Part shown: positions 7,782 to 17,164 of the stretch, piece after piece
Layout: every line of letters starts with the position of its first letter
Numbering within the stretch: position 1 is the first letter of the stretch
Source of the DNA: a virus
Length of the DNA: 17,214 bases
Reading direction: 5' to 3' (one strand)
Virus genome (UHGV): UHGV-0135926
Position numbers and translations under genes: made by a program
The notes under the pieces: generated by a model
Databases searched by the model: none
What the model saw: only the letters and a program-made list of their open reading frames with translations
What the model was told of the DNA's origin: nothing

Positions 7782-8628
7782 ATTAACCGGCTACGTATGG
7801 GATGGTTGCGCGGCGTCGGGCATGAAGTTGTCTAGTGTCGCGATCATGGCCCGCCTCGCTGATTTCAGCAGCGATGAGGGCGTGTGCTGGCCGTCCATTG
7901 AAACTATTGCTCGCCAGCTTGGCGCAGGGCCGAGCACTATCAGAACGGCAATCGCTAAGCTTGAAAAAGATGGCTGGCTCACGCGTACACAGCGCCGTAA
8001 TGGTAACCGTAATGCTTCGAACGTGTACCGCCTGAATGTGGCGAAACTTCAGGCTGCCGCATTTTCTCAACTGTCAGATTCTGACACGTCAAAATCTGAC
8101 GCATCAAAATTTGACGCCTCAAAAACTGACCCGTCGAAATCCGTCAAAAACGGCGGTTTTGACCCGTCAGAATCTGGCGGGGATCCGTCAGTAAAATCAA
8201 AACAAGATCCACAAGTAACTTCAAAACCCTCTTGTCCGGTTGCGGCGCAACCAGACCCTGAAGTCGTGATTACTGATCAGGCAATTTTGGTTCTGACCCA
8301 TTTGAACAAGATCAGCGGATCCCGGTATCAGAAATCAAAAACATCCCTGGAGAACATCCGTGCCCGACTGCGTGAGGGATACAGCGTTGCAGACCTGCAA
8401 CTGGTTATCGACCTGAAGCATGAGCACTGGCACGAGAACGACGAGCAGTACCAGTACATGCGCCCGGAAACGCTGTTCGGCCCGAAGAAATTCGAGAGCT
8501 ATCTGCAAAGCGCTACCCGCTGGGAGCAGAAGGGACGGCCTAAACGCGCTGACTGGGGTGCGAAAAAGCGCGATGTGATGGCTTTTGGTCCGGTTGATAC
8601 AACGATTCCAGAGGGGTTCAGAGGATGA
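7771..8628 (+). CDS. Replication initiator (lambda O-like role): N-terminal HTH, iteron-encoded repeat linker, conserved phage C-terminal domain
   Basis: 285 aa; the internal peptide repeat SDSDTSKSDASKFDASKTDPSKS is encoded by the iteron array. Position downstream of the CII analogue. Stop overlaps the next start (ATGA). Confidence 0.8.
   Translation: MSTKLTGYVWDGCAASGMKLSSVAIMARLADFSSDEGVCWPSIETIARQLGAGPSTIRTAIAKLEKDGWLTRTQRRNGNRNASNVYRLNVAKLQAAAFSQLSDSDTSKSDASKFDASKTDPSKSVKNGGFDPSESGGDPSVKSKQDPQVTSKPSCPVAAQPDPEVVITDQAILVLTHLNKISGSRYQKSKTSLENIRARLREGYSVADLQLVIDLKHEHWHENDEQYQYMRPETLFGPKKFESYLQSATRWEQKGRPKRADWGAKKRDVMAFGPVDTTIPEGFRG
8071..8198. repeat. Origin-type iteron array inside the replication gene (15-bp period)
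   Basis: Tandem TGACACGTCAAAATC (8082-8096), TGACGCATCAAAATT (8097-8111), TGACGCCTCAAAAAC (8112-8126), TGACCCGTCGAAATC (8127-8141), then degenerate copies to 8198. Followed by an A-rich stretch. Confidence 0.7.
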
Positions 8629-9506
8629 CGTTAAACAAATATTGCCAGTCGCTGGCGGAACTACGTAGCCAACCAGCCCACGAATTGAAAGAAGTTGGCG
8701 ATCAGTGGCGAACACCGGATCTGCTTTTTTGGGGGATCAACGCGCTATTTGGTCCATTAGTTCTGGACTTGTTTGCTGACGCCGACAACGCGAAATGCCC
8801 GGCATGGTACACCGCCGAAGATAACGCGCTGACGCAGGACTGGTCTGAACGTCTGGCAGAACTGGGTGGCGCTGGCTATGGCAACCCACCGTATAGCCGT
8901 TCGCAGTACCACGAGAAACAGGCGATCACTGGTATGACGCACATCATGAAATACGCAGCAGCCCAGCGCGAGAAGGGCGGTCGCTATGTATTCCTGATAA
9001 AAGCCGCGCCGAGTGAAACGTGGTGGCCGGAAGATGCCGATCACATTGTATTCATTCGCGGGCGCATTGGGTTCGATCTGCCTGTGTGGTTTGTACCTGC
9101 TGACGAAAAACAGAAACCCACCAGCGCGTTTTTTGCCGGTGCCATAGCTGTATTCGATAAGTCGTGGCGTGGTGAGCGGTTCAGCTATATCAACCGCACA
9201 GAACTGGAGGCAAAAGGTCGGGAATTTATGGCGCTGGCTCAATTCGCTGTTGGTAAAGAGCAAACAATTGCAGTGCGGACAGCCCAGGAACCAGTAATAC
9301 CATCGGAAACTGAGTCACGTATCTGGCCTCTAGAGGTTGGTCTGGTGTTTAACCAGGTGGAAGGCGTTGACGTATTGAGTGAGGCTCAGCAGAACAAGCT
9401 GAAAGCCAACATCAATCAACTCTGGCTGGAACGAACGGCCACCAGCGAAATTATTACAATTGCGCGTGGTCTTGTTGGCAGCATGCAGGGGGTAACCCAT
9501 GCGTGA
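8625..9506 (+). CDS. Phage Dam-family DNA N6-adenine methyltransferase
   Basis: 293 aa; catalytic NPPY motif (…GYGNPPYSRS…). Translationally coupled to both neighbours (ATGA at 8625, 8-nt overlap with the next gene). Confidence 0.8.
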   Translation: MTLNKYCQSLAELRSQPAHELKEVGDQWRTPDLLFWGINALFGPLVLDLFADADNAKCPAWYTAEDNALTQDWSERLAELGGAGYGNPPYSRSQYHEKQAITGMTHIMKYAAAQREKGGRYVFLIKAAPSETWWPEDADHIVFIRGRIGFDLPVWFVPADEKQKPTSAFFAGAIAVFDKSWRGERFSYINRTELEAKGREFMALAQFAVGKEQTIAVRTAQEPVIPSETESRIWPLEVGLVFNQVEGVDVLSEAQQNKLKANINQLWLERTATSEIITIARGLVGSMQGVTHA

Positions 9507-11433
9507 GATTATCGTTGATAACTTTGCTGGTGGCGGTGGCGCATCAACGGGTATTGAACTGGCGATCGGGCGCAGCGTGGATATTGCGATAAACCACGAC
9601 GAAAACGCCATTGCGATGCACAAGACGAACCACCCGGACACACTGCATTATTGTGAATCCGTATTTGACGTGGATCCGGTAGCCGCCACCGGAGGTCATC
9701 CTGTCGGACTGGCATGGTTTAGCCCGGACTGCCGACACTTCTCGAAGGCAAAAGGCGCAAAGCCTGTGAAAAAAGAGATACGCGGTCTGGCCTGGATTGT
9801 TCTGCGTTGGGCACTGGCAAAGCGACCGCGCGTGATGATGCTGGAGAACGTGGAAGAGTTCAAAACGTGGGGACCGCTGCTGGCCGATGAAATGCGTCCG
9901 GATCCTGCCCGCACTGGCGAAACATTCAATGCATTTGTCGGCATGCTGTCCACTGGCATTCCTGCTGATCACCCGGCACTGGCTGAGGTTTGTGAGTTTC
10001 TGTCTATCGAAAGAGGTAGCGAGCAGGCACAAAAGCTGGTGGATGGGCTGGGATATGATGTTGATTATCGCGAACTACGTGCGTGTGATTACGGCGCGCC
10101 GACGATCCGCAAACGCTTCTTCATGGTTATGCGTTGCGATGGTTGCCCAATCCAGTGGCCTGCTATTACCCATGGGGATCCTAAGTCTCTGGAGGTGCAA
10201 AGTGGCAGGCTGATGCCATGGCGTACCGCTGCGGAATGTATCGACTGGAATATTCCGGCCCTGTCCATCTTCGACCGCAAAAAACCGCTGGCGGAGAACA
10301 CTCTGAAGCGGATCGCGCGCGGCATACAGCGCTTTGTTATCGAAAGTGCGTCGCCGTTTATTGTGAAGTGCAACCACACGAGCTCAAAAAATGCGTATGA
10401 CGCTTTTCGCGGACAGTCACTGAATGAGCCATTACAGACCATTACTAAAAAACTCGGCTACGCGTTAGCCGTTCCACACCTGACAAAATTCCGCACTGGC
10501 GCAACCGGGCAGCCCCTTACCGAACCTGTTCCGACGGTAACCGCTGGCACGTCAAAACGCCCGGGCGGGAACGGGCATGCACTCGGGATTGTTGAGGCTG
10601 CACTGACGCCATTCCTGGCGGGTAATGGTGGTAGTGAATACCAGGCGAAACCGCGCCCGCTGGATAAACCTGCTCATACCATTCTGAAGCAATCCCGAGC
10701 CTGTCTGGTTGCGCCAGTGATAGCCCGCCAGTTTGGGGCCAGCGTCGGCCACCGTGCAGACGAACCGAGCGCAACCATCACCGCTGGTGGTGGCGGTAAA
10801 TCTCAACCGGTAACGCCTACGCTGATTCAGATGGGTTATGGCGAACGACCTGGGCAAGAACCGCGTGTGCTGCGACTGGATAACCCGCTGGGGACCGTTA
10901 CTGCAGGCGGAAATAAATTTGCGACGGTGAGCGCGTTCCTGGCGAAACACTACGGCGGTAACTATACGGGGCCTGGTGTCAGTATGGATGAACCCGCGCA
11001 TTCAGTGACCACTGTCGACCATCATGCGGTAGTTGCCTCTCATCTGGTGAAACTGCGTGGAACATGCCGCGACGGGCAACGCCTTGATGTGCCAATGCCA
11101 ACAATCACTGCTGGTGGCCAACACGTGGGTGAGGTACGCACATTTCTCGAGACGTATTGCGGGGAAAGTGACGATGAATGGCTGGTAACGATCGATGGGG
11201 TTAAATACCAGATCGTTGATATCGGAATGCGCATGTTGCAGCCGCATGAACTCTACAAAGCGCAGGGCTTCCCGGATGGTTACGTTATTGATCAGGACTA
11301 CCGTGGAAATCGCTATGCAAAAGATAAGCAGGTAGCCCGCTGCGGTAATGCGGTACCACCACCATTCGCCAGGGCGCTGGTGGAGGCAAATCTTCCGGAA
11401 CTGTGTGCAGTGCAACAGCAGGAGGTGGCATGA
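9499..11433 (+). CDS. DNA cytosine-5 methyltransferase with a long repeat-containing variable region
   Basis: 644 aa. Motif I FAGGGG, PC-type motif SPDCRHFS, motif VI MLENV, motif VIII TIRKRFFMV, motif IX LQPHELYKAQGFPDGY, motif X RCGNAVPPPF. Between VIII and IX there are seven tandem units with core h-[DNT]-[EKNV]-P-x-x-[TS]-[IV]-T. Confidence 0.85.
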   Translation: MREIIVDNFAGGGGASTGIELAIGRSVDIAINHDENAIAMHKTNHPDTLHYCESVFDVDPVAATGGHPVGLAWFSPDCRHFSKAKGAKPVKKEIRGLAWIVLRWALAKRPRVMMLENVEEFKTWGPLLADEMRPDPARTGETFNAFVGMLSTGIPADHPALAEVCEFLSIERGSEQAQKLVDGLGYDVDYRELRACDYGAPTIRKRFFMVMRCDGCPIQWPAITHGDPKSLEVQSGRLMPWRTAAECIDWNIPALSIFDRKKPLAENTLKRIARGIQRFVIESASPFIVKCNHTSSKNAYDAFRGQSLNEPLQTITKKLGYALAVPHLTKFRTGATGQPLTEPVPTVTAGTSKRPGGNGHALGIVEAALTPFLAGNGGSEYQAKPRPLDKPAHTILKQSRACLVAPVIARQFGASVGHRADEPSATITAGGGGKSQPVTPTLIQMGYGERPGQEPRVLRLDNPLGTVTAGGNKFATVSAFLAKHYGGNYTGPGVSMDEPAHSVTTVDHHAVVASHLVKLRGTCRDGQRLDVPMPTITAGGQHVGEVRTFLETYCGESDDEWLVTIDGVKYQIVDIGMRMLQPHELYKAQGFPDGYVIDQDYRGNRYAKDKQVARCGNAVPPPFARALVEANLPELCAVQQQEVA

Positions 11434-13520: not shown

Positions 13521-14351
13521 ATGAACCTGGATAATGTACTGAAATTTTTTGCGCCGAAAGGTATGCACATATCAGATACCAGCAGAGCGACAGCCAGTGA
13601 ACAACTGACGGTTACTGATGTAATGGCTGCACTGGGGATGACTCAGGCCGATGCGGGGATAGGCCTGGCAATGTTTCTGGGCAAAGCTGGTATCAGCAGC
13701 CAGGACAGGGAGGCGTCAATAGCTTGGCTAACGGAGTACGCGAAAGAGCATGCGCCCATGGCCATTCGTAAAGCGTCAGGGAAAAAGTTTCCCCTCTGCA
13801 TGCGTATTCTTGCCCGGTTTGCCTATAACGATTATTCCTCATCAGCCGCTGATAGCGTGGCATGCCCAAAATGTAGTGGTAAAGGGTTGCTTACAACTAC
13901 TAAAACCGTGACTAAAAGTCATTACACAATGCGATTGCCACAATGGGCAAAAGACCTGAGACAGTCACCATCTGACTTTGAGGTTAAGCGCGATGTAACT
14001 GACACTGATCATACGTTATGTTCCCGCTGCCATGGCACAGGAAAGTTAAGTAAGCGATGCCAGTGCGGCGGCACAGGTAAGACTATTGACCGTAAAGCGA
14101 CAGAACTGCAGGGCGTACCGGTTTACAAAGAATGTAAGCGCTGTGAAGGTCGGGGATACAGCAGGCCAAAATCATCGGTTGCCTATCGAGGTGTTTTTTC
14201 TGAGTTGCCGAGTCTGCCTGACCGAACGTGGCGTTATAGCTGGAAACCATTCTATGAAAGCCTGGTGACCAAATGTTTCCAGGAGGAGAGTTATTCAAGC
14301 TCTCAACTGAATCGGGTGACTAAAAGTGAAGATGTGATAAATATCGCGTAA
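13521..14351 (+). CDS. Q: Late-gene antiterminator Q (QuuQ-like) with four CxxCxGxG-type zinc-finger motifs
   Basis: 276 aa; GGAG 5 nt before the ATG. Position immediately upstream of a pR'/tR' unit and the lysis genes. Motifs CPKCSGKG, CSRCHGTGK, CQCGGTGK, CKRCEGRGY. Family assigned by context and size rather than a clear sequence match. Confidence 0.6.
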   Translation: MNLDNVLKFFAPKGMHISDTSRATASEQLTVTDVMAALGMTQADAGIGLAMFLGKAGISSQDREASIAWLTEYAKEHAPMAIRKASGKKFPLCMRILARFAYNDYSSSAADSVACPKCSGKGLLTTTKTVTKSHYTMRLPQWAKDLRQSPSDFEVKRDVTDTDHTLCSRCHGTGKLSKRCQCGGTGKTIDRKATELQGVPVYKECKRCEGRGYSRPKSSVAYRGVFSELPSLPDRTWRYSWKPFYESLVTKCFQEESYSSSQLNRVTKSEDVINIA

Positions 14352-14367
14352 TTTAGCGTCATGATGT

Positions 14368-14408
14368 TTGCAATGTTGCCGTTTTTGTGTATATTTGACA
14401 TTAACGAT
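14368..14408 (+). promoter_or_regulatory. Late promoter pR' with promoter-proximal pause element
   Basis: TTGCAA (14368-14373), 16 nt, TATATT (14390-14395), then tgacattAACGATGGG (14403-14411). Lambda pR', as I recall it, is TAAATT-tgactc-AACGATGGG with the AACGAT pause-inducing element. Confidence 0.55.
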
Positions 14409-14432
14409 GGGCATTGTATGTTCAGAGTTAAG

Positions 14433-14459
14433 AAACCCGCCACCGAGCGGGTTTTTTTT
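14433..14459 (+). terminator. tR'-type intrinsic terminator
   Basis: Stem aaacccgc (14433-14440) / gcgggttt (14447-14454), loop caccga, followed by a T8 run. Confidence 0.75.
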
Positions 14460-14493
14460 GCACTAGGCCATTCAATCTACGTAAAAATCAATG

Positions 14494-14502
14494 TGTTACA
14501 AT
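14494..14502 (+). promoter_or_regulatory. Candidate extended -10 promoter for the moron gene
   Basis: TGtTACAAT (TG at 14494-14495, hexamer 14497-14502) about 36 nt upstream of the ATG at 14538. No convincing -35. Confidence 0.3.
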
Positions 14503-14537
14503 AGCCGCAAGCAAAACGACAACACAAAGGCGGCATA

Positions 14538-14780
14538 ATGAAATTAACATCTGTTCATATCGAAACTCTGAGTCGCGCAAGCGCTCTTGGACCACGTGAA
14601 ACAATTCAATCTTCTGATCTTCCTCACATTCCAGCGGAAGCGGTGAATTTTGCTATTTCTGATCTCGCTGAGTTGGGTCTGGTAAATGCTGTGCAGAGTA
14701 CGTCTGATTGTGACGACAGCTGGATAGTGAATAGAATTACGTCTAAAGGGAATAGCTATTTAATTGATCTTGAGTCTTAA
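14538..14780 (+). CDS. Moron-encoded small acidic protein (80 aa), function unknown
   Basis: ATG 14538 with AAAGG 7 nt upstream. AT-richer than flanking genes. Sits between tR' and the holin gene, with its own candidate promoter and terminator. Confidence 0.55.
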   Translation: MKLTSVHIETLSRASALGPRETIQSSDLPHIPAEAVNFAISDLAELGLVNAVQSTSDCDDSWIVNRITSKGNSYLIDLES

Positions 14781-14817
14781 CTATCTGATTAATAAATAGG
14801 TACACCACATTTATTAA

Positions 14818-14840
14818 GGCTGCCTTCTGGTGGCCTTTTT
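14818..14840 (+). terminator. Candidate intrinsic terminator after the moron gene
   Basis: RNA stem GGCUGCC / GGUGGCC (two G-U pairs), loop UUCU, followed by UUUUU (14836-14840). Confidence 0.45.
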
Positions 14841-15021
14841 CATATTCAGGGCTCACTGACGGACGGCTCATAACCCAATCCGACAGGCGCTTGCGCAGAG
14901 CCCGTTCTGATTCAGGATCACGGGAATCATCCTCGATACGCATTGTTGATAAATCCAGCCCGTGAAGCCTGATCCTCCTTTCATCACACAGCGCCATCCG
15001 AACTATCGGAGGTGAGAGACC

Positions 15022-15357
15022 ATGAAAATGCACAACGACCCTCACTCCTGGACGGAGTTAATTGAGTTACTTCATAGCTGGTGGCGCGGTGATACGCCAA
15101 TGGGTGCCGTCCTTTTATCGGTAGCGATGGCTGTACTGCGAATTGCGTATGTCGGCGGTGGCTGGAAAAAGATGGTGCTGGAAGGGTTGATGTGTGGCGC
15201 CATGACGCTGACGGCTGTTTCCGCACTCGAGTATTTCAACCTTCCACAGTCTCTTTCCATCGCTATCGGTGGCGCGCTGGGTTTCGTTGGCGTTGAGCAG
15301 GTGCGCTCAATGGCCACGCGTGTTTTCAACGTTCGCTTTGGTGGCGACGCCAAGTAA
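15022..15357 (+). CDS. Class I holin (lambda S-like) with dual-start motif
   Basis: N-terminal M-K-M dual start, three predicted transmembrane segments, charged C-terminus, GGAGG upstream. First gene of the lysis cassette. Confidence 0.8.
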   Translation: MKMHNDPHSWTELIELLHSWWRGDTPMGAVLLSVAMAVLRIAYVGGGWKKMVLEGLMCGAMTLTAVSALEYFNLPQSLSIAIGGALGFVGVEQVRSMATRVFNVRFGGDAK

Positions 15358-15366
15358 GGGATCCCC

Positions 15367-15981
15367 ATGAACCAACAACAATTTCAGCAGGCGGCTGGTA
15401 TCAGCGCCGGGCTTTCTGCACGCTGGTTTCTGCACATTGATGCGGCAATGAAAGAGTTTGGAATTACAGCAGTTAACGATCAGGCCATGTTCATTGCACA
15501 AGTTGGGCATGAATCTGCTGGTTTTACCTCGCTGGTCGAGAGCTTCAACTACTCGGTAGACGGGCTGAAGAAAACCTTTGGTAAGCGCTTGACGCCGTAC
15601 CAGTGCGAAATACTGGGGCGTGTCGATGGTAAACAGGTCGCTCACCAGCCACAAATAGCCAATCTGGTTTACGGTGACCGTATGGGGAATAACAGCCAGG
15701 GTGACGGCTGGAAATATCGCGGTCGTGGCCTGCTTCAAATCACCGGCCGCGAGAACTACACCAAATGCGGTTCGGCGCTGAAGCTTGACCTTGTCAGTAC
15801 GCCAGAACTTCTGACGCAAGAGCGACATGCGGCTCGTTCGGCGGCGTGGTACTTCACCATGCGTGGTTGTCTGCTTTATTCGGGCGACATCGTGCGTGTC
15901 ACGCAGATCATCAATGGTGGCCAGAATGGACTGACTGACCGTAAGGTGCGTTACAGCCGGTCGCTGGCGGAGCTGTCATGA
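15367..15981 (+). CDS. Endolysin, glycoside hydrolase family 19 type
   Basis: 204 aa; GH19-like motifs FIAQVGHESAGF and LLQITGRENY. No N-terminal signal-anchor, so a canonical holin-dependent endolysin. AAGGGA upstream. Confidence 0.85.
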   Translation: MNQQQFQQAAGISAGLSARWFLHIDAAMKEFGITAVNDQAMFIAQVGHESAGFTSLVESFNYSVDGLKKTFGKRLTPYQCEILGRVDGKQVAHQPQIANLVYGDRMGNNSQGDGWKYRGRGLLQITGRENYTKCGSALKLDLVSTPELLTQERHAARSAAWYFTMRGCLLYSGDIVRVTQIINGGQNGLTDRKVRYSRSLAELS

Positions 15982-16379
15982 TGGCGCTTATCACTCTCTT
16001 TGGTTTGTTTAAAGCGCATTGGCGCTGGTGGCTGACTATCGTTGCGCTGGTTATCTTCTCCTGGCTCTGGAATGAAAATACTCGCATCAGTGCCAGCCTG
16101 AACACGCTACAGGATGCGAACGACAGCAACCGCGCTGTAATGGATAACGTACTGAAAACCGTTGCCATCACCAATATGATTCTGGGAGCTAACCAGCATG
16201 CAAAAAACCAGATCGCACTGGAGTCACAGAGAACTCAGGAAGATATCAAAGTGGCTGTTGCGGGTGATGATTGCTCTCGCCGGCCTGTTCCTGCTGCAGC
16301 TGCTGACCGGCTGCGGCAATACGCGGACGGTGTACGTACCAGTGCCGCAGCAACCAGTTCCGTCCAATCTGACCGCTGA
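15978..16379 (+). CDS. Rz: Rz-like inner-membrane spanin (i-spanin)
   Basis: ATGA overlap with the endolysin stop. N-terminal transmembrane segment (WWLTIVALVIFSWLW) followed by a predicted coiled-coil periplasmic domain. Confidence 0.75.
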   Translation: MMALITLFGLFKAHWRWWLTIVALVIFSWLWNENTRISASLNTLQDANDSNRAVMDNVLKTVAITNMILGANQHAKNQIALESQRTQEDIKVAVAGDDCSRRPVPAAAADRLRQYADGVRTSAAATSSVQSDR

Positions 16380-16748: not shown

Positions 16749-16813
16749 CGGCATTACAGCAGGCATTCACTGAGTGCCTGCGATAATGCTATGCGTTTTT
16801 TTGGGGAGTGAAT

Positions 16814-17164
16814 ATGCCACCGCGCACACCGAAGGCTTGTCGCGTTCGCGGCTGTCGGAACACCACAACAGACCCGTCTGGCTACTGTGAAAATCACAAA
16901 GGTGAAGGCTGGAAGTCCTATAAGCCAGGTCAATCACGGCAGCAGCGTGGATACGGAACAAAGTGGGAAGTCATACGGGAGCGGATACTTAAGCGCGACA
17001 AAGGGCTGTGTCAGAACCATCTTCGGCAGGGAGTAGTGAAGCAGGCGTCCTGCGTGGACCATATCAAAGCGAAGGCCCACGGCGGCACTGATGAAGACAG
17101 CAACCTTGAAAGCCTGTGTTGGTCGTGTCACGCAGCGAAGACTGCGCGTGAACGGCTCAAATGA
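16814..17164 (+). CDS. HNH endonuclease (terminase-associated type)
   Basis: ATG 16814 with GGGGAG 5 nt upstream (the track begins at GTG 16808). Cys-rich N-terminus (CRVRGCRN…CENH) and HNH core (…CQNH…CVDHIKAKAHGG…NLESLCWSCHAAK). Confidence 0.8.
   Translation: MPPRTPKACRVRGCRNTTTDPSGYCENHKGEGWKSYKPGQSRQQRGYGTKWEVIRERILKRDKGLCQNHLRQGVVKQASCVDHIKAKAHGGTDEDSNLESLCWSCHAAKTARERLK

Follow-up and report, generated by a model that had tools for sequence, protein, structure and literature searches.

A predicted Q-dependent late-gene regulatory cassette with a short terminated leader in a lambdoid prophage segment

Among the closest described counterparts of the locus analyzed here is the pR'-qut-tR' region of lambda, whose Q protein belongs to PF03589, defined as the Q-lambda family (PMC9388147). 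Q engages a transcription complex paused with 16-25 nt of RNA (PMC4914094), and structures of Q-lambda show the 5´ end of the RNA passing through the Q torus at 12-16 nt (PMC9388147). A role in pausing has been described for the GGG at +7 to +9 (PMC5001585), and in the Q-loading complex of lambda, sigma region 4 docks on the TTGAC motif (PMC9388147). Comparable regions are marked in several phage records: the phi80 record (NC_021190) annotates the pR' -35 (TTGCAT), Q site, -10 and terminator, the HK225 record a terminator, and the phage g341c record a putative PR'/qut site. Here we describe a 17,214-nucleotide stretch of viral DNA (the window), in which positions 14368-14459 (+ strand) very probably form the regulatory cassette through which Q controls the late genes of a lambdoid prophage.

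Promoter, pause element and adjoining Q gene

Upstream of the Q gene, the window encodes a CI-like repressor, a CII-like activator, replication proteins, DNA methyltransferases, Ant and a DUF968 protein. Downstream of the cassette are a lambda-type holin gene (15022-15357, +; Pfam Phage_holin_3_1, E = 6e-32), a GH19 endolysin gene (15367-15981, +; Pfam Glyco_hydro_19), an ORF without a Pfam match that is Rz-like by position only (15978-16379, +), and a gene for an HNH endonuclease of the terminase-adjacent kind (16808-17164). This flanking gene content shows the window to be the immunity-to-lysis segment from a lambdoid prophage, in which the promoter module occupies exactly the place of pR'. 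The early-right operon contains the two adjacent DNA methyltransferase-like genes (293 and 644 aa; 8625-11433), with the replication genes on one side of the pair and ant on the other. We also noted a moron between tR' and the lysis genes (14494-14846, +), assigned from the ORF list, PHROG and the terminator scan, with an extended -10 read from the sequence (TGtTACAAT, 14494-14502), an 80-aa ORF (14538-14780; PHROG 32916, E = 3e-19, and a weak DUF2513 match) and its own terminator, found in the terminator scan (14816-14846). In relatives, other and unrelated genes take the place of the moron, such as one for a 'heme biosynthesis HemY N-terminal domain-containing' protein in an E. coli prophage.

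The gene immediately upstream of the cassette encodes a lambda-family Q antiterminator of 276 aa (13521-14351, +; Pfam PF03589, E = 8.5e-47). Comparison with the lambda Q chain of 7UBM (phmmer, E = 7e-44) gave two matching blocks, residues 1-112 and 176-268, separated by an insertion of ~63 aa (residues 113-175) at the site of the lambda zinc-ribbon 'arm'. The arm of this Q has four CxxC(x)GxG-type repeats (C115/C118, C167/C170, C180/C182 and C205/C208), compared with two in lambda, and a DnaJ_CXXCXGXG Pfam match exactly at threshold; from these residues, it may be a two-zinc 'arm'. As the arm is 63 aa longer than that of lambda, its contacts may differ. Phi80, HK225 and mEp237 all have the long form of Q, which occurs in more of the distinct lineages than the lambda form does.

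The cassette itself, contained in the sequence catgatgTTTGCAAtgttgccgtttttgtgTATATTtgacattAACGATGGGcattgtatgttcagagttaagAAACCCGCcaccgaGCGGGTTTTTTTTgcac (14361-14465, +), begins 17 nt past the Q stop codon with the -35 hexamer TTGCAA (14368-14373, +), which was found in the promoter scan and matches the consensus at 4/6 positions. A 16-bp spacer (14374-14389, +) separates it from the -10 hexamer TATATT (14390-14395, +), recognized by eye, in the promoter scan and in a composite motif search. Both its match to the consensus and its conservation in relatives mark TTGCAA-16-TATATT as a predicted sigma70-type promoter. The -10 is followed by TGACATT, AACGAT and GGG and then by a terminator stem and a run of eight T residues. 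The start point is most likely A14403, which is located 8 nt past the -10 and preceded by T, and with this start the -10-like hexamer falls at +1 to +6, as in lambda. The predicted start and sigma70-dependent pause element thus share positions 14403-14411 (+), with the -10-like AACGAT at 14403-14408 (+1 to +6) and the GGG discriminator at 14409-14411 (+7 to +9). The first-pass annotation had reported that the initial transcribed sequence resembles that of lambda, and alignment bears this out: AACGATGGG is an exact match to the lambda pause element, the two sequences being identical over +1 to +9. Pausing is predicted at +16/+17 (14418-14419, +), where T(+17)G(+18) agrees with the pyrimidine-G pattern of pause sites.

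The composite of promoter and pause element cannot be put down to chance, whereas its single parts could be. The promoter scan of the window alone was without significance (7 sites compared with 4.1 expected), and matches to AACGATGGG with up to one mismatch occurred in the window at chance level (4 seen, 3.8 expected). A search for TATATT-N7-AACGATGGG returned a single match, which is exact and located 51 nt past the Q stop codon, with 0.02 matches expected when two mismatches are allowed.

A -35-like TTGACA (14395-14400, +), corresponding to TTGACT in lambda, lies just 5´ of the pause element, at a distance of 2 bp compared with 1 bp in lambda. Since some relatives have TTTAAT or TTTATC instead, TTGACA is probably dispensable. 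Together with TATGTT, the same hexamer forms a promoter-like pair (TTGACA-16-TATGTT, 14395-14422) that matches the consensus at 10 of 12 positions and overlaps pR' and the pause region; TATGTT (+15 to +20), which the clade retains, is a candidate for a second -10-like element.

The promoter spacer is also the predicted Q-binding element, for which we propose a core of GTTGCCG (14375-14381, +) and a TG (14386-14387, +) based on clade comparison and phi80. In the Q clade of the window, the spacer GTTGCCG(T/C)TTTTG is invariant. Other Q clades carry other sequences: TTTTCCCGAATCTG in the mEp237/HK225 clade, ATTGAATAAAATTG in lambda, and ATTGAATAAA(A/G)TTG together with lambda Q. The position of GTTGCCG coincides with a 7-bp protein_bind feature, 'gp17 (Q)', that lies between the annotated pR' -35 and -10 in the phi80 GenBank record; this annotation and the text of PMC9388147 were our sources for the lambda and phi80 binding-element bases. 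The spacer varies together with the Q clade, the behavior expected of a Q-binding element, and the exact bases given are those that this comparison predicts.

Terminator and leader RNA

An intrinsic terminator, tR', follows the pause element at 14433-14459 (+), with an 8-bp stem (AAACCCGC, 14433-14440, and GCGGGTTT, 14447-14454), a 6-nt loop (CACCGA) and a T8 run (14452-14459). Counting from A14403 as +1 places the first base of the hairpin at +31 and the last base of the T-run at +57, in agreement with the earlier estimates that the hairpin starts about 30 nt past the start and that the terminator lies about 55 nt downstream. A simple terminator scan of the window did not list this hairpin; it is backed by RNAfold, by a separate scan of our own and by 99.1% pairing across 29 relatives, in which one compensatory change was found in the stem (C-G to U-A, in Serratia). 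In other lineages, at least eight unrelated hairpin sequences (CCCGCC, CCTCGC, GCCCTGCGG, CCTGCC, CCTCACC and others) occupy the tR' position. A terminator whose position is kept and whose sequence is replaceable has the signature of one required in cis, as judged from these alignments. We also considered two ORFs that span both the promoter and the terminator, one of 47 aa on the + strand (14361-14504) and one of 46 aa on the - strand (14303-14443), and rejected both as genes, as the relatives differ by T-run lengths and by wholesale replacement.

Folding of the 60-nt RNA from 14403 (RNAfold) gave a 5´ hairpin (nt 1-27), an 11-bp terminator hairpin and U8, with the terminator stem counted as 11 bp with its outer A-U extension and as 8 bp without it. 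The predicted folding energy of the transcript is -22.2 kcal/mol (z = -3.5), and only a 3-nt linker separates the two hairpins, leaving the terminated RNA, which would be ~55-57 nt long, almost entirely base-paired. A search of Rfam with the window RNA returned sub-threshold, terminator-driven matches only (Trp, Thr and Leu leaders, STnc370, isrJ and isrK), with bit scores of 23.5 for STnc370 (gathering threshold 54), 19.9 for isrJ (37) and 15.9 for isrK (50). The STnc370 match starts exactly at 14403, and we rejected this assignment given that the consensus maps to the Salmonella chromosome and to short unannotated records, never beside a Q gene.

The predicted 5´-terminal stem-loop (14403-14429, +; RNAfold minimum free energy structure) consists of an AAC/GUU pairing and an inner 7-bp stem. 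Within the clade of the window, 93% of cells pair and no double-sided change was found among 29 sequences, so that support for this structure comes from cross-lineage comparisons only. Across 18 leader types with nine different pause hexamers, the RNA 5´ end (the pause element, +1 to +9) is complementary to a segment at about +14 to +33, and hexamer changes are matched by the partner: AACGA/UCGUU in a P22-type leader (L178) and AAUGA/UCAUU in L280, or AACG/CGUU in a lambda-type leader (L003) and AAGG/UCUU in L071. Other leaders have AAGAAUG/CAUUCUU (L161), UAGUGGG/CUCACUA (L086) and CAAUGG/CCAUUG (L181). Shuffling of the downstream segment gave a combined Fisher p = 6.6e-5, and grafted non-cognate hexamers scored lower (permutation p = 5e-4), values that are indicative only, as the leader types are not all independent. 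We put forward, tentatively and with more doubt than confidence, that the pause-element RNA may be under selection to pair with about +14 to +33 across late operons of the Q-lambda type, forming a 5´ stem-loop. Because the pause hexamer is fixed by its job at the DNA level, the partner would be the co-varying side. If this is true, the stem-loop could plausibly guard against 5´-end-dependent decay, both for the short RNA that ends at tR' and for the long late mRNA. We found no description of such a 5´ stem-loop in the searchable literature.

Conservation, proposed mechanism and alternative readings

A megablast of 14300-14540 against the phage collection gave no match, and relatives were reached through blastn in its distant mode, through E. 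coli genomes and through the Q protein. About 300 related loci were compared. The same Q subfamily is encoded in the genomes of Citrobacter (96% identity), Phytobacter, Atlantibacter, Superficieibacter, Leclercia and Serratia (47%), as well as in an E. coli prophage, Klebsiella phage Kp4866-6 and 80 viral contigs. The layout after Q was alike in all ten of the first loci compared (eight genome loci, the E. coli prophage and the Klebsiella phage): (C)TTGCAA, the conserved spacer, TA(A/T)ATT, 7 nt, an exact or closely similar AACGATGGG, and a hairpin with a T-run. Promoter, pause element and terminator are kept in every examined relative of this Q, with (C)TTGCAA invariant in both the closest Q clade and the Serratia clade, and the pause element is exact in 56 of the 80 long-Q viral loci. 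Among the 69 long-Q regions that are non-redundant and have a recognizable pause element (window included), 64 have a canonical terminator, with the hairpin starting at +25 to +44 (median +31) and the T-run ending at +52 to +68 (median +56); most of the remaining five have hairpins with shorter T-runs that the filter missed. The first-pass annotation had proposed a lambda-like pR' with a sigma70-dependent pause element and a nearby terminator. This proposal is upheld by the adjoining lambda-family Q upstream, the retention of the module in relatives, a spacer that follows the Q clade and lines up with the annotated phi80 Q site, and the lysis genes downstream on the same strand.

In our comparisons, the pause element also appears as a mosaic or recombination junction between Q/Q-binding-element modules and leader modules. 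Compared with the closest E. coli prophage, the window shows 93.5% identity as far as 14419 (+17) and no relation from there on. One contig (L065) combines an mEp237-type promoter with a window-type leader, and two others (L114 and L118) a lambda promoter with an mEp237-type leader.

The sequences themselves document the makeup of the cassette, its retention in relatives and the joint variation of spacer and Q clade. Where transcription starts and pauses, that Q binds and that it brings about read-through we infer from homology with lambda, P22 and phi80, in a mechanism modeled on that described in PMC9388147, PMC5001585 and PMC4914094. Sigma70 RNA polymerase would start constitutively at about A14403 from TTGCAA-16-TATATT, and sigma region 2 would then re-bind the -10-like AACGAT(GGG) in the non-template strand, holding the polymerase in a pause at about +16/+17. 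Without Q, the polymerase would escape, and termination at the hairpin and T8 (14433-14459) would yield a ~56-nt RNA. Once accumulated, Q would bind the promoter spacer (core GTTGCCG...TG), engage the paused complex and ride with the polymerase past tR' and the moron terminator (14816-14846), so that the genes for holin, endolysin and structural proteins are transcribed.

Of the other ways to read this region, the one with the most in its favor, which we nonetheless regard as unlikely, is that promoter and terminator together serve chiefly as a gene for a small RNA. Its ~56-nt product, made constitutively in lysogens, would act in trans like the StxS of Stx phages, with antitermination secondary or coexisting. 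Some pR' leaders can indeed be functional Hfq-binding sRNAs (PMC7547250), the RNA here would end in a hairpin and U-tail, and +10 to +28 is highly conserved in the clade. However, near-full pairing and the 3-nt linker would leave little room for a seed, the Rfam matches all fall below threshold, and other lineages swap the leader and terminator sequence while keeping the position, which points to a role in cis. A trans function of the window RNA is not supported, though such a role would be compatible with a late-gene cassette rather than exclusive of it.

Two further readings concern the promoter itself. Were the overlapping TTGACA (14395-14400)-16-TATGTT (14417-14422) the true promoter, transcription would start at ~14429. 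This is the best-scoring promoter-like site in the region and its -10-like half is conserved, but such a start falls inside or just before the terminator and would give a ~30-nt RNA without the pause element, relatives that lack TTGACA keep everything else, and in lambda the equivalent TTGAC is where sigma region 4 docks and not part of a promoter (PMC9388147); we therefore consider this reading very improbable. We give slightly less credence still to the notion that the hairpin is the mere end of the early or Q transcript, beside promoter-like and pause-like sequences that arose by coincidence. That a terminator should follow the last of the early genes would cause no surprise, and the individual motifs are short, but the composite motif is far beyond chance (0.02 expected matches, as above), and AACGATGGG is kept at a fixed 7 nt from the -10 across Q proteins that are 44-50% identical, while the surroundings diverge. 

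Read as a Q-dependent late cassette, the region determines, for a widespread enterobacterial prophage lineage, where the late operon begins and which module confers Q specificity. It belongs to a well-known kind, and the understanding of Q antitermination is unchanged. The 5´ hairpin covariation, the junction at the pause element and the four-repeat Q arm may be of use for work on Q specificity and late-mRNA stability.

Comparison with lambda, StxS, P22 and phi80

The window shares with the lambda pR'-qut-tR' region a Q of family PF03589, the pause element at +1 to +9, a TTGAC motif that overlaps the -10 at its end, an intrinsic terminator before the lysis genes and, as predicted for the window, a spacer that holds the Q-binding element. 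The two differ in the spacer and Q-binding-element sequences, which are unrelated (ATTGAATAAAATTGGG in lambda, GTTGCCGTTTTTGTG in the window), in the distance from the -10 to the pause element (6 nt in lambda, 7 nt in the window) and in Q, which in lambda has 207 aa and one CxxC pair set, compared with 276 aa and four CxxC-type repeats. Spacings of 6 nt (TGACTC) and 7 nt (TGACATC) both occur with the same Q among contigs with the lambda core (L180-L299). The leaders also differ. Lambda makes a 194-nt leader, the 6S RNA, with its T-run ending at +193; we take this leader to be lambda 44587-44780. The predicted window leader is ~56 nt and has no 6S homology, since similarity to lambda ends after about +9 and the terminator occupies +31 to +57.

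The first-pass annotation had pointed to a leader much shorter than 6S. The difference in length stands, but as a departure from the norm of the family it does not, given that P22, phi80, HK225, mEp237 and about half of the lambda-core contigs are alike in this respect. Among 101 viral contigs with a lambda-type promoter core and pause element, 50 have a P22-type short leader, 44 a lambda 6S-type leader and seven another short leader. Together with P22, phi80, HK225, mEp237 and an Stx2k phage, these counts establish a terminator ending ~55-70 nt past the start as the prevalent design in the lambda-Q family, correcting the lambda-centered expectation: the 194-nt 6S leader is one of two common alternatives. 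By analogy with the described complexes, a short leader is expected to be mechanistically unproblematic for Q, because both Q events, engagement of the paused complex and threading of the RNA 5´ end, precede synthesis of the hairpin sequence (+31 to +52).

StxS resembles the predicted window RNA in deriving from constitutive pR' transcription that ends at tR' in lysogens (PMC7547250). It differs in being made as a 258-nt primary transcript that is processed by RNase E to 74 nt, and we found no sequence similarity between StxS and the window. We had considered StxS as a precedent for a short leader and rejected it on account of the length of this primary transcript.

The Salmonella phage P22 encodes, as its gene 23 protein, a Q that is 96-97% identical to that of lambda. 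Its late promoter has a short leader of the same geometry as in the window, with the hairpin starting near +28 and the T-run ending at ~+57. The P22 sequence reads ...TAAATTTGACTCAACGAATGG...AAAGCCCTGAG...CTCGGGGCTTTTT, with the end near +57. P22 differs from the window in having a lambda-type Q-binding element and Q, and its leader and terminator are unrelated to those of the window beyond the pause element.

Phi80, HK225 and mEp237 share several features with the window: a long-form Q (269-276 aa) with the arm insertion, a -35 of TTGCAT or TTGCAA, 7 nt from the -10 to the pause element, and a terminator within ~55-77 nt of the start. The annotated phi80 terminator lies ~46-74 nt past the start, HK225 and mEp237 terminate at ~+56, and the Stx2k phage at ~+68. 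Sequence differences from the window are found in the Q-binding core, TCGCGGA in phi80 and TTTCCCG in mEp237, and in the phi80 pause hexamer, AACGCT. Phi80 Q, compared with lambda Q only, is 35.5% identical to it, and the Q proteins of the mEp237/HK225-type clade are ~45-50% identical to the Q of the window.
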